64,000 nucleotides of DNA from Lachnospiraceae bacterium (GCA_024694055.1 JAILKC010000071.1:3789-67788), one strand, 5' to 3'. Numbered from the stretch's first letter, positions 1 through 9,640 are shown. Numbers and translations are program-made. Notes: a model not told the origin generated them from the letters alone.

Positions 1-89
1 GAGTGGAAGGATATGAATTCACCGGAGACATTGATGAGGCAATTGACAGACTGGTGAGATATAAACAGGTTCAGGCATTGTTCAATTGA
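1..89 (+). CDS. 3' end of an upstream gene, probably a NifX/NifB-C-terminal (FeMo-cofactor carrier) family protein (partial)
   Basis: The frame from nt 3 reads VEGYEFTGDIDEAIDRLVRYKQVQALFN-stop (TGA 87-89). This resembles the C-terminal strand-helix of NifX/NifB-type domains, and it lies directly upstream of the nifH-like gene. Only 28 residues are visible. Confidence 0.45.
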   Translation, partial: VEGYEFTGDIDEAIDRLVRYKQVQALFN

Positions 90-106
90 CTGAATACAGC
101 AAGTGA

Positions 107-129
107 TCAACCCGTACAGATACGGTTGA
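107..129 (+). other. Intergenic stem-loop upstream of nifH-like gene
   Basis: TCAACCCGTA-CAGA-TACGGTTGA is an inverted repeat with one bulge and no U-tract. Confidence 0.4.
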
Positions 130-169
130 AATATCTAAAAGATTGGTTGTTAAGAAAGGATAAAACAAA

Positions 170-1018
170 ATGGGAGAGTTAAGACAGATAGCGATTTATG
201 GAAAGGGTGGAATAGGTAAGTCTACGACAACACAGAATCTTACAGCCGGCCTTACCGAGCACGGTAAGAAAGTCATGGTAGTAGGCTGTGACCCCAAGGC
301 GGATTCCACAAGACTTCTTTTGGGAGGTCTGGCACAGAAGACGGTGCTCGATACCATAAGAGAAGAGGGTGAGGATGTATCACTTGACAGGATCATGAAA
401 GAAGGCTTCGGAGGGACCAGATGTGTGGAGTCAGGCGGTCCCGAACCCGGTGTAGGATGTGCCGGAAGAGGTATCATCACCTCGATCAGCATGTTAGAGA
501 ACCTGGGTGCATATACGGATGATCTTGATTTTGTCTTCTATGATGTGCTCGGTGATGTGGTCTGCGGAGGATTCGCAATGCCTATCAGAGAAGGAAAAGC
601 TAAAGAGATTTATATCGTAGCCAGCGGTGAGATGATGGCCCTGTACGCAGCCAACAACATCTCAAAGGGTATTGCCAAATATGCCCGCACCGGAGGTGTT
701 CGCCTCGGAGGTATCATATGTAACTCAAGAAACGTAGACAGAGAGCTCGATCTTTTGCGTGCGTTCTCAAAAGAACTCGGTACAAAGCTTTTATACTTCG
801 TTCCCAGAGACAATGTGGTACAGCATGCGGAGATACATAAGCAGACTGTAATACAGTATAAGCCGGAATGTAATCAGGCCAATGAATACCGTAACCTCGC
901 ACAGGCTGTGATTGAGAATACGGAGTTTACGATACCGACTCCCATGACACAGGAAAGACTCGAGGAGATCCTCATGGAATACGGCATGATGGATCTGGCT
1001 GATGATTACAAGATCTGA
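170..1018 (+). CDS. nifH: Nitrogenase iron protein family reductase (NifH/MarH-like)
   Basis: Walker [35 protein letters not shown] and [11 protein letters not shown] (both 4Fe-4S Cys). RBS AAGGA upstream. Confidence 0.95.
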
Positions 1019-1059
1019 TAAAGGGACTGATAAGGAATAGAAAGGACAGGATACAGGAT

Positions 1060-2511
1060 ATGGCTAATGCAACAGGAGTGGCAGAGGTCGAGATACGAGA
1101 CACGCGACTTAAGTCAATAATGGCTTTTCACGGAAAAGCGAGTGAACTGCAGGAATTCTCCAGGCAGTTAAAGAAACCGGCTGCAGACAGATGCTTTACA
1201 CAGTGTAGCGACTGTGCGCAGATGTGTGCCGGCACAGTGACCAATCACGTAAGGGGCTCCGCTGTGGTATATCACTCTCCGATGGGATGCTTTGCCAATA
1301 CACCGGTACAGAATGAAGCAACCTACAATGCTGCACTGGCCAGGGGCCTGGAGCCCTTTGATGTTAGAAGCGTCTGCAGCAACATAAGCGAGAAAGATAC
1401 CATATACGGCGGACTTAAAAAACTGAGGGATGCCGTAAAACTGGCATATGACAGATTCGTTCCGACCTGTATATTCATACAGTCATCATGCGCGGCAGGT
1501 ATAGTCGGAGACGATATCGAATCGGTAGCCGATGAGATGGCTGAGGAGCTTGGGATACCGATAGTGCCGGTGTTCTGTGAAGGCTTTAAGTCCAAGGCAT
1601 GGTCAACGGGATTCGATGCGGGATATCACGGGATACTGCGTAAGATAGCCCAAAAGCCCGAAAAGAGGCAGAAGGATCTGGTAAATATATTCAATTTCTT
1701 AGGTACGGATACATTTACACCGATGCTTGCCAAGATAGGGCTTAGGCCGAATTATCTTGTACCGCTTGCCGATCTTGAGACGTTAAGGACGATGACAGAG
1801 GCGGCCTGCTCAACGGAAGTATGTGAGACTTTGGGAACATATATCACGACCGTACTTGAGGAAGAATTCGGAGTACCCAAGGTACATGCTCCTTCACCTT
1901 ACGGTATCAAATGGACTGATGAGTGGTACAGAGAGATAGCAAGACTTACGGGTAAGACAGACATAGTCGAGAAGGTCATCGAGGAAGAGCATAAGAGGAT
2001 ACAGCCTGAGCTTGATGAACTGAAAAAGGAATTAGCCGGACTTAAGGTATATATATATGCCGGCGATTCTTATGCACATAATCTCGGAAGCCTTGTTCAC
2101 GATCTCGGGGTGGAGATAGTTGGTATGACGACTCTTCATCATGATATGAAGATAGACGGCGAAGATGCACAGCACAGTACACTTCAGGAGATGATAGATG
2201 TTGCGGGCGATATAGAAGAGTTTACGGTATGTAATAAACAGCCCTATGAAGTCATAAAGCATCTTAAGAAAGTAAAGCCCGACTTCATGATAGTCAGGCA
2301 TATGAATATGACGATCCTTGCAGCCAAGCTCGGTATACCGAGTATCTTCGAAGGAGAGATAAATGTAAGTGCGGGTTATGACGGCCTGTTGCTTACGGGC
2401 AGAAGGATAAAGGATCTTATAAAGGCTAAAAAGATACTTGCCACACTGGCGGAATACAATGAGTTCCCATACACTGACTGGTGGCTTGATCAGGAGGAAA
2501 ATTATATATGA
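1060..2511 (+). CDS. Nitrogenase component-1 alpha-like subunit (NifD/NifE-like; group IV, MarD/NflD-like)
   Basis: P-cluster-type Cys motifs CFTQCSDCAQMC, HSPMGC and SSCAAGIVGDD, plus CEGF and the cofactor-ligand-type Cys in TEVCETLG. The canonical NifD QMHSWDY motif is absent. Confidence 0.88.
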   Translation: MANATGVAEVEIRDTRLKSIMAFHGKASELQEFSRQLKKPAADRCFTQCSDCAQMCAGTVTNHVRGSAVVYHSPMGCFANTPVQNEATYNAALARGLEPFDVRSVCSNISEKDTIYGGLKKLRDAVKLAYDRFVPTCIFIQSSCAAGIVGDDIESVADEMAEELGIPIVPVFCEGFKSKAWSTGFDAGYHGILRKIAQKPEKRQKDLVNIFNFLGTDTFTPMLAKIGLRPNYLVPLADLETLRTMTEAACSTEVCETLGTYITTVLEEEFGVPKVHAPSPYGIKWTDEWYREIARLTGKTDIVEKVIEEEHKRIQPELDELKKELAGLKVYIYAGDSYAHNLGSLVHDLGVEIVGMTTLHHDMKIDGEDAQHSTLQEMIDVAGDIEEFTVCNKQPYEVIKHLKKVKPDFMIVRHMNMTILAAKLGIPSIFEGEINVSAGYDGLLLTGRRIKDLIKAKKILATLAEYNEFPYTDWWLDQEENYI

Positions 2512-9025: not shown

Positions 9026-9031
9026 TCTATT

Positions 9032-9065
9032 TTTCTTGACTATATCCATAGGAATAGTGTAAAAT
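9032..9065 (+). promoter_or_regulatory. SigA-type promoter of the Rrf2 gene with overlapping putative IscR/CymR-type operator
   Basis: -35 TTGACT (9036-9041), 18-nt spacer, -10 TAAAAT (9060-9065). The 25-mer TTTCTTGACTATATCCATAGGAATA (9032-9056) resembles IscR type-1-like Rrf2 boxes. Confidence 0.6.
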
Positions 9066-9142
9066 AATTGTGCTAGATTTATTGCAACAACTGTTGCGGA
9101 TCGCATTAAAACAGGTACTGATACCTGTAGGGGGTGTAAAAG

Positions 9143-9574
9143 ATGTGGATATCTACTAAAGGAAAAAATGCCATAAAAGTAATGATAGATTTGGGGCAGT
9201 ATTCGACAGGAGAGCCGGTTAAAGTCAAGGACATTGCCAAGAGACAGGATATTTCGGATAAGTATCTTGAACAGATCATATCTTTGCTCAACAAAGCGGG
9301 ACTTGTCAAAAGTATAAGAGGTGCAAGAGGCGGCTATACCCTGAATATGCCTACTGAGAAGTATACGGCAGGGATGATACTCGAGGCGGTCGAAGGCGAT
9401 ATGTCGGTGATCGATGATCAGGGAGAGAGAACATCTGAGAATATTACGGATACGGTCTGTATGAGGCTGTGGGATAAGCTTGATGAGTCGGTTCGGGCAG
9501 TGCTTGATAACGTGACACTGGCAGATATGCTTGAGTGGCAGGAAGCACTTTTGGTGGATCAATATATGATATAA
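9143..9574 (+). CDS. Rrf2 family transcriptional regulator (CymR/IscR-like, lacking the Fe-S Cys triad)
   Basis: ISTKG..A, IS.KYLEQI...L.KAGLV.S.RG..GGY and IL..VEG motifs. Only one Cys. Confidence 0.92.
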   Translation: MWISTKGKNAIKVMIDLGQYSTGEPVKVKDIAKRQDISDKYLEQIISLLNKAGLVKSIRGARGGYTLNMPTEKYTAGMILEAVEGDMSVIDDQGERTSENITDTVCMRLWDKLDESVRAVLDNVTLADMLEWQEALLVDQYMI

Positions 9575-9595
9575 GGATCATGTGTGAATAATAAG

Positions 9596-9640
9596 CAGAA
9601 GATGTTGCGATCAGAGTCTGACCGCAACATCTTTTGTGTT
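9596..9640 (+). terminator. Rho-independent terminator closing the nitrogenase-like/sulfur block
   Basis: CAGAAGATGTTGCGATCAG-AGT-CTGACCGCAACATCTTTTG is a 19-bp stem (one G-U, one mismatch) ending in a T-rich run. Confidence 0.75.

Follow-up and report, generated by a model that had tools for sequence, protein, structure and literature searches.

Organization of the gene cluster

The window analysed here, a 64,000-nucleotide stretch of a rumen Lachnospiraceae genome (contig C50:3789-67788; assembly of 2.28 Mb in 186 contigs, 84% complete), begins with a cluster of nitrogenase-like genes that resemble those for methylthio-alkane reductase (MAR), followed by genes for an ATP-binding cassette (ABC) importer, a desulfidase-like enzyme and a regulator. 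An original prediction, made from the window alone, had read this region as a sulfur-scavenging reductase module, and all of the genes it named were found, on the plus strand throughout and tightly spaced. Its left border proved to be the edge of the window and not of the operon, since the promoter, cysK, a tRNA-Cys gene, a radical S-adenosylmethionine (SAM) gene and the rest of a NifX-like gene lie upstream on C50. The operon starts 2.4 kb upstream of the window, and the complete order is a promoter with two palindromes, cysK, tRNA-Cys, a marB-like gene, a NifX-like gene, nifH, D, K, a second NifX-like gene, the genes for a substrate-binding protein (SBP), two permeases and an ATPase, a CdsB/CyuA-like gene, an Rrf2 regulator gene and a terminator. 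These genes appear to form one operon of about 12 kb (C50:1357-13421, ending at window position 9633), which would be expressed under cysteine or sulfur starvation.

The first gene, cysK (C50:1506-2441), scores 442 bits against TIGR01139 (cut-off 351). The NifB/MarB gene that the original prediction had sought upstream exists as a NifB-like (marB-like) radical SAM gene of 294 amino acids without a NifX domain (C50:2644-3528; TIGR01290 259 bits, model positions 10-277). It is followed by a NifX-like (NflX) open reading frame (ORF) of 156 amino acids with an uncertain start (C50:3407-3877, its 3' end being window positions 1-89; PF02579 59.7 bits), which matches the C-terminal part of the NifB model. 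Within the window, an Fe-protein gene of the MarH/NflH family, 'Group I NflH' type, lies at 170-1018 (PF00142 432 bits; TIGR01287 463 bits, cut-off 394), the gene for the MarD-like catalytic subunit at 1060-2511 (PF00148 257 bits) and that for the MarK-like subunit at 2508-3914 (206 bits), overlapping D by 4 bases. The second NifX-like cofactor-carrier gene, whose start codon is also uncertain, follows at 3853-4311 (PF02579 36.7 bits); NifX-like genes 3' of K are found in many related loci as well.

Identity and phylogeny of the D, K and H proteins

In a search of all solved structures, D matched chain 9fmg_A with 424 bits as opposed to 120 bits for the best NifD, and K matched MarK of 9d9u/9fmg with 372 bits as opposed to 75 bits for the next match. 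The 9FMG entry is the MarDK2H2 complex of Rhodospirillum rubrum (PMC12552129), to whose MarD the identity of D is only about 43%. The Nif, Vnf, Anf, NifE, NifN and Bch models all remained far below their cut-offs for D and K, with 140 bits against 654 for NifD and 68 against 427 for NifK. Structure scores, profile scores and the tree placement described below agree that D and K are Mar-like and not a group I-III nitrogenase or NifEN, as had been proposed. The Fe protein is NifH-like and about 50% identical to the R. rubrum-type MarH.

For the phylogeny of D, 80 named loci (from species-representative genomes; here and below, the loci counted are those among the matches listed) were combined with genus and order relatives, named database proteins and representatives at 50% identity, and both quick trees and a careful site-heterogeneous tree were built. 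R. rubrum itself was not among the matches listed, and the MarD of an Azospirillaceae metagenome-assembled genome (MAG) was used as an anchor instead; with 966 bits to 9fmg_A, an 85%-type match, we regard it as closely orthologous to R. rubrum MarD. The D protein of Heliophilum fasciatum served as the second anchor; it pairs with its Heliobacillus mobilis homologue, in agreement with the NflDK5/MarDK pair of PMC9147875, and for Heliophilum native MAR activity has been published (PMC13753814, PMC9147875). The homologue matches included Heliophilum, Heliobacillus, Pectinatus, Kineothrix, Treponema primitia and others, and the remaining organisms tested in PMC13753814, for instance Ruminiclostridium hungatei, Fibrobacter succinogenes and Propionispora, were all absent from them.

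The D protein of the window falls into a well-supported sub-clade (100 by the Shimodaira-Hasegawa-like approximate likelihood-ratio test in the quick tree, with the careful tree giving 100/98) with members from Lachnospiraceae, Negativicutes, Treponema, Alistipes, Coriobacteriia, Planctomycetota and others. Its nearest relative is 'uncultured Lachnospiraceae, Reindeer_2_mag_80', with a D identity of 89%. Quick and careful trees alike unite this sub-clade with the alphaproteobacterial Mar clade and the Heliophilum/Clostridium clade (98/97) and leave three other nitrogenase-like clades, some of them from the same loci, outside the joint Mar clade. As the sister of the alphaproteobacterial Mar clade, the sub-clade is nested among the validated MARs in the careful tree (97/97 and 87/86). 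D does not branch with the Nif sequences, a placement that would have spoken against the original prediction. From the trees, membership of Group IV-C is probable.

Residues were compared by residue-by-residue alignment to MarD and MarK and in an alignment of 120 sequences. All six Cys ligands of the P-cluster are kept, C52, C77 and C144 of D corresponding to MarD positions 66, 91 and 158, and C12, C36 and C101 of K to Cys32, Cys56 and Cys121 of MarK. The cofactor ligands Cys270 and His429 of MarD, as well as Arg428, are present as C255, H414 and R413 and are invariant in all 86 sub-clade sequences. Arg428 lies on a Mar-specific loop and has been proposed as a Mar hallmark (PMC12552129); in the two Nif outgroup sequences the column of H414 holds Gly, and the Arg-His loop is specific to Mar. 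Trp195, Phe199 and His375 of MarD are also kept.

The lining of the active site differs. Cys73 of MarD, which adjoins the S2B site, is replaced by T59 in the D protein of the window, Gln74 by V60 and His194 by Ala. Across the sub-clade Thr, Ser, Met or Gly occupies the Cys73 position, and 65 of the 86 sequences have a Cys three residues ahead of it; 13 of 15 Heliophilum-type sequences keep Cys73. By this alignment, an active-site Cys common to the two validated MAR lineages is lost from the sub-clade. As neither Cys73 nor Gln74 is called defining in the literature, the change would bear on specificity and not on membership.

The minimal set of marB, marH, marD and marK is complete in the cluster, without NifEN, and nifEN, PII and amtB are absent from the operon, as originally noted. 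The assembly, 84% complete, holds no other PF00148 gene (nifDK or nifEN) beyond the one D and the one K; NifH is likewise present once, and the sole PII gene is found on a different contig.

The distribution of the D gene within the genus is patchy. A close orthologue was found in one of the 24 other genus genomes searched, many of which are incomplete, and two others carry a different nitrogenase-like D; the pattern suggests gain or loss by horizontal transfer. In one genome of the same genus (G020, locus L016, 1131-10500) the scaffold of cysK, tRNA-Cys, marB, NifX and nifH is the same, with cysK 90% and nifH 92% identical, and two D-K pairs of other nitrogenase-like clades replace the Mar-type D-K and importer genes, an arrangement that resembles a cassette swap behind a conserved front end. 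In two Treponema MAGs (L054 and L061) a Heliophilum-type D-K and an importer-interleaved D-K share one marB, one nifH and two cysK genes, so that both Mar lineages occur in one cluster.

The linked importer and C-S lyases

Four genes downstream of the second NifX-like gene encode an importer of the polar amino-acid (family 3) type. The gene for the lipoprotein SBP spans 4329-5336 (PF00497); the protein has a lipobox (LTAC) followed by a linker rich in Ser, Thr, Ala, Asp and Glu, and because of this lipobox the true start is probably at 4377. Two polar amino-acid transporter (PAAT) permease genes (5466-6212 and 6209-6931; PF00528) have cystine and glutamine permeases as their best NCBIfam matches, both below cut-off, and the best NCBIfam match of the ATPase (6936-7700) is TcyN with 317 bits against a cut-off of 406. 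The closest solved relatives of the SBP are 4c0r, 4eq9, 4gvo and 2o1m; the last of these is YtmK of Bacillus subtilis, and the first two we take to be the glutathione-binding GshT. With the cystine SBP model reaching 24 bits against 312, the importer stays below all equivalog cut-offs, and its orthology to TcyJKLMN is not established for this reason. All of its domains are those of an amino-acid importer, not a metal importer.

The original prediction had placed weight on conserved synteny between the D-K genes and this importer, and the linkage is indeed conserved across several phyla, with ATPase copies adjoining D-K in other phyla being 56-69% identical. We scored an amino-acid importer as linked when an ATPase at least 50% identical and an SBP and/or permeases were present within 7 kb of D. 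By this measure a polar amino-acid importer was linked in 33 of 82 sub-clade loci and an NMT1/Ssu-like importer in 24, while none had both; one type or the other was found in 57 of the 82, and many of the loci without an importer sit on short contigs. When only loci with at least 4 kb on both sides were considered, 24 of 51 had at least two amino-acid importer components within 6 kb. Of nine D genes from the two lineages with validated MARs, the R. rubrum type and the Heliophilum type, none had an importer of either kind nearby. The relatives in these counts are not independent of one another.

The importer genes occur in at least six gene orders around D-K, for instance H-D-K-X-SBP-P-P-A (window), H-A-D-K-SBP-P-P, H-SBP-D-K-P-P-A and A-D-K-P-SBP-P. 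In several of these the SBP or the ATPase gene is inserted between nifH and D, an arrangement that is hard to explain by shared regulation alone, and the mutual exclusion of the two importer types looks like substrate switching.

Downstream of the importer, the gene at 7757-9025 (PF03313, SDH_alpha, 129 bits) encodes a CdsB/CyuA-like Fe-S protein that among solved structures comes closest to the L-cysteine desulfidase 9fsl (141 bits, residues 6-409); by its sequence the protein is a homologue of L-cysteine desulfidase over its full length. Partner genes in the related loci were identified by clustering the neighbouring ORFs, followed by Pfam and NCBIfam scans. Among the loci with an amino-acid importer, 16 also have a PatB-family C-S lyase (TIGR04350 456 bits), 19 a cystathionine gamma-lyase-like enzyme and six a fused serine-dehydratase-like Fe-S enzyme, and the Ssu-linked loci almost never have genes of these three kinds. 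For the association between importer and cysK, the phylogenetically independent pairs were too few for an assessment.

Regulatory elements and the embedded tRNA gene

Upstream of cysK lies a promoter that matches the sigma-70 consensus at 12 of 12 positions (C50:1357-1385), together with two perfect palindromes, TTCCTAT-N7-ATAGGAA, at C50:1351-1371 and 1410-1430. The first overlaps the -35 element and the second lies about 25 bp past the -10 element. They are the only perfect copies in the genome, and no wider regulon emerged from the genome-wide search, which gave seven looser matches where 6.7 are expected by chance. The second palindrome is conserved in the nearest relative, and cysK promoters from other Lachnospiraceae and from Treponema loci have similar CCTAk-N7-mTAGG boxes just past the -10 element.

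The last gene of the operon (9143-9574) encodes an Rrf2-family regulator of CymR/IscR-like type (PF02082 127 bits), and no other Rrf2 gene was found in the assembly. The palindromes, which were compared with the CymR motif of B. subtilis, are probably operators of this repressor. As for the CymR-type regulator originally proposed, the Rrf2 domain is borne out, but the protein misses the CymR equivalog cut-off (125 bits against 195). In Bacillus and Listeria, CysK is the co-repressor partner of CymR, and Tcy importers and cysK are classic CymR targets in Firmicutes (PMC3828012, PMC9239247). By analogy, the operon would be under autoregulated, cysteine-responsive repression in which CysK takes part, and control of the Rrf2/CymR type is likely. 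The cysK promoters of L016 (G020) and of Eubacterium xylanophilum (L024) are without the CCTA-N7-TAGG box and have the inverted repeat GTGATAA/TTATCAC instead, which hints at a different regulator for the same type of operon.

The operon is closed by a strong terminator, as originally described, a hairpin of 16-bp stem (9599-9633) followed by the T-rich tail TTGTGTTT, and no strong internal terminator was seen within it. The largest intergenic gaps are 130 nt before the first permease gene and 118 nt before rrf2; the latter holds a promoter-like site with a ATAGGAAT half-site (9036-9065), identified solely by its match to the consensus. In window positions 1-16000 and the upstream 4.8 kb, an Rfam search revealed no S-box, T-box or other leader and returned the tRNA only. 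Directly 3' of cysK stands a GC-rich hairpin of 10 bp, GGGTGGAGGC ... GCCTCCACCC (C50:2472-2503), and this hairpin and a run of eight T after the tRNA gene may together cause some transcripts to be terminated or processed between cysK and the mar genes.

The tRNA-Cys(GCA) gene (C50:2508-2578), between cysK and the marB-like gene, has the discriminator A instead of the usual U and a weak anticodon stem, and reaches only 42 bits with the Rfam model for tRNA. No second tRNA-Cys was found in the assembly, which is 84% complete. Two other species of the genus have the tRNA-Cys at this position too, and it also adjoins cysK in a species without mar genes; in Kineothrix alysoides a canonical tRNA-Cys lies directly upstream of ATPase-marD. 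A role as a regulatory tRNA-like element was considered and not adopted, as the gene is apparently the single-copy tRNA-Cys of the genus and adjoins cysK in the absence of mar genes too. Loci of other species of the genus (L102-L108) hold tRNA genes 82-85% identical to it with the anticodon CAT or TCA, the latter in an 8-nt loop and called tRNA-SeC by ARAGORN, and one tRNA body appears to have shifted its anticodon within the genus.

Past the terminator, window positions 9690-14239 carry genes for MutS2 (MutS_V, Smr) and for an OmpR-type response regulator and a histidine kinase, which are ordinary-looking and apparently unrelated.

Proposed function and alternative explanations

The gene content allows a mechanism to be proposed. 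The operon would be repressed by the Rrf2 protein encoded by its last gene together with the CysK encoded by its first, by analogy with CymR-CysK of Firmicutes. The MarB-like radical SAM protein and the two NifX-like carriers would build and deliver an L-cluster-type cofactor, and ATP-dependent electron transfer from the NifH-like Fe protein would supply a MarD/MarK-like heterotetramer that should hold a P-cluster and an [8Fe-9S-C]-type cluster. This enzyme would cleave a C-S bond reductively and release a small hydrocarbon. As the D-K genes of the sub-clade are usually importer-linked and the importer here is cystine/glutathione/YtmK-like, the most likely sulfur source is an imported non-volatile organosulfur amino acid, S-methylcysteine or another compound of the S-alkyl-cysteine type, which may be cleaved directly or after a C-S lyase, here the CdsB-like protein, has freed a thiol or thioether from it. 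CysK would then capture the released sulfur. The different parts of this proposal do not carry the same weight. That the cluster performs ATP-driven reductive C-S cleavage of the Mar family for sulfur scavenging under cysteine limitation is very probable. As the physiological source, an S-substituted amino acid brought in by the importer, or a thiol or thioether that a lyase releases from it, is plausible, with a chance that we put slightly short of even, and for the importer-coupled explanation as a whole the arguments are finely balanced.

Several points weigh against this explanation. Group IV-C enzymes of Clostridia, Negativicutes, Fibrobacter and others reduce volatile dimethyl sulfide (DMS), ethyl methyl sulfide (EMS) and methylthioethanol (MT-EtOH) (PMC13753814), and these compounds need no importer. 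The importer link is absent from about 30% of the sub-clade loci, and the importer state changed at least 10 times on the tree. In the assembly studied here the importer is the sole one of its type, and therefore it may simply be the cystine importer of the cell, placed in the same regulon. The linkage to a CdsB/YhaM enzyme, which the original prediction had treated as part of the module, is not conserved beyond the nearest relative, other C-S lyases replacing CdsB elsewhere, and the association between importer and lyase was not significant in phylogenetically independent pairs, of which there were too few. Furthermore, a tree that unites the validated MARs to the exclusion of the sub-clade was not rejected by the approximately unbiased test (p = 0.11). 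Concerning the regulation, the Rrf2 protein scores nearly as well with the IscR model (112 bits) as with that of CymR (125 bits).

The main alternative is that the cluster encodes an ordinary MAR acting on volatile thioethers (DMS, EMS or methylthioethanol) that diffuse into the cell, with methanethiol and methane, ethane or ethylene as products, and that the importer, the CdsB-like protein and CysK are separate members of the cysteine-starvation response, clustered with the reductase for co-regulation and not to feed it. D and the validated MARs share one strongly supported clade; all of Group IV-C has been concluded to consist of functional MARs, and DMS occurs in the rumen at 1-100 uM (PMC13753814). 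The cystathionine gamma-lyase/sulfhydrylase-family genes of related loci would fit the capture of methanethiol into methionine, and the known CymR targets include just such importers and cysK. On the other hand, the contrast between 0 of 9 validated-lineage loci and 57 of 82 sub-clade loci with an importer, the wedging of importer genes between nifH and D, the mutually exclusive importer types and the loss of Cys73, kept by most Heliophilum-type proteins, speak against it. We regard this as a serious possibility that nevertheless falls somewhat short of being probable. At the opposite end, the importer-linked sub-clade might not act on volatile thioethers in vivo at all and might be an anaerobic counterpart of the oxygen-dependent S-alkylcysteine salvage of Bacillus. 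A plant S-alkyl amino acid, for example S-methylcysteine or its reduced sulfoxide from forage, would be imported; a C-S lyase (CdsB-like here, PatB or gamma-lyase elsewhere) would free an alkyl thiol, or the reductase would act on the amino acid itself; the nitrogenase-like enzyme would yield a hydrocarbon and sulfide or cysteine, and CysK would capture the sulfur. In this strict form the proposal is unlikely.

It is quite improbable that the reaction has nothing to do with C-S cleavage and instead concerns transport-coupled assembly of a cofactor or metal cluster, reduction of some other import or other sulfur chemistry. In 2012, Dos Santos et al. (PMC3464626) suggested for ABC-linked nitrogenase-like (NFL) genes that transport of a metal might be coupled to the assembly of the cofactor; PMC13753814 describes what determines the substrate of NFL enzymes as unknown, and the lining of the active site is unlike that of validated MARs. 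However, the importer resembles those for amino acids and not those for metals, none of the MAR cluster ligands is missing, and cysK, the Rrf2 gene and the C-S lyases place the enzyme in a context of cysteine metabolism. Nitrogen fixation, whether by a standard or an alternative nitrogenase, might be considered because NifH passes the nifH equivalog cut-off and because some Group IV-A enzymes (Endomicrobium) have been implicated in it (PMC13753814). It is very unlikely, and close to negligible in our view, because of the low Nif, Vnf and Anf scores of D and K, the lack of any other PF00148 gene and hence of nifEN in the assembly, the single NifH and the position of the only PII gene on another contig; the cofactor His on the Mar-specific Arg-His loop, the placement of the operon behind cysK and the position of D outside the Nif sequences argue in the same direction.

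Relation to known systems

Among characterized systems, MarBHDK of R. rubrum (Group IV-C; 9FMG, 9D9U) is the most similar, sharing the set of B, H, D and K genes, the best solved match for both D and K, the cluster ligands, the absence of NifEN and the context of sulfur limitation. It differs from the present cluster in that marB is short here and the NifX-like genes are separate, in that Cys73, Gln74 and His194 are Thr, Val and Ala here, and in its control by LysR/SalR, whereas the operon described here includes the importer, cysK, tRNA-Cys, the CdsB-like gene and Rrf2. The MAR of H. fasciatum (NflDK5), the only natively validated MAR of Clostridia, is likewise of a Firmicute Mar lineage and belongs to the same strongly supported clade, and it is repressed by other sulfur sources (PMC13753814). 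It stands in a separate lineage, however, which keeps Cys73 and has no linked importer in the seven loci examined.

A nitrogenase-like C-S enzyme acting on an imported, non-volatile organosulfur compound is already known in the isethionate reductase IsrBHDK of Rhodobacter capsulatus (Group IV-F), which is co-induced with the ABC importer ssuCAB and with cysteine-synthesis genes (PMC13474568). IsrBHDK belongs to another Group IV clade, and its importer and substrate are those of a sulfonate, as opposed to the amino-acid-type importer found here. The Mo-nitrogenase system NifHDK/NifEN/NifB shares the Fe protein, the D/K architecture, the P-cluster ligands and a NifB-type cofactor precursor with the present cluster, which differs from it in having no NifEN and no nitrogen-regulation genes, in the cofactor His on a different loop and in D/K scores far below the Nif cut-offs. 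The ytmI operon of B. subtilis (TcyJKLMN, S-methylcysteine salvage) with the CymR-CysK regulon offers a parallel in its YtmK-related SBP and, here only by analogy, in an Rrf2 repressor working with CysK. The ytmI system takes up cystine and S-substituted cysteines, and the dealkylation of S-alkylcysteines in B. subtilis uses oxygen-dependent monooxygenases, in place of which an oxygen-sensitive, ATP-driven reductase would stand here.

The co-localization of Group IV NFL genes with cysteine synthase and ABC transporters was noted as early as 2012 (Dos Santos et al., PMC3464626). The link to cysteine synthase has been restated in a study that also demonstrated functional MARs in Clostridia and in bacteria of the rumen and discussed DMS as a substrate there (PMC13753814, October 2026). 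The same study gives marBHDK as the minimal set, describes clusters in which marB is short and nflX separate, and reports poor function in R. rubrum for clusters that have a NifH-like 'Group I NflH'. According to a Chemical Reviews article (PMC13474568), gene context has until now done little to reveal the substrates of nitrogenase-like enzymes. The original prediction was right in kind, but that kind had already been published, which weakens its novelty: the sulfur-scavenging reading, the missing MarB and hydrocarbon production in the rumen are all contained in papers of 2020-2026. What remains new is the coupling of the sub-clade to importers and lyases, the altered lining of the active site and the putative CymR-type wiring with an embedded tRNA-Cys.

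Significance

The context of this cluster is unusually specific, with a cystine/glutathione/YtmK-like importer wedged into D-K across phyla, C-S lyases alongside and a second importer type elsewhere. The importer coupling narrows the question of the natural substrate of these gut and rumen enzymes to a short list of binding and activity assays, and cultured carriers are at hand in Butyrivibrio proteoclasticus P6B7, E. xylanophilum ATCC 35991 and K. alysoides. If DMS alone were the substrate, this would be one more ordinary MAR cluster. If a dietary S-alkyl amino acid were the substrate, forage chemistry would be linked to the release of methane or ethylene by bacteria, and in the strict form of S-alkylcysteine salvage outlined above the sub-clade would represent a new substrate class for the nitrogenase superfamily and a diet-linked, non-archaeal source of rumen methane.

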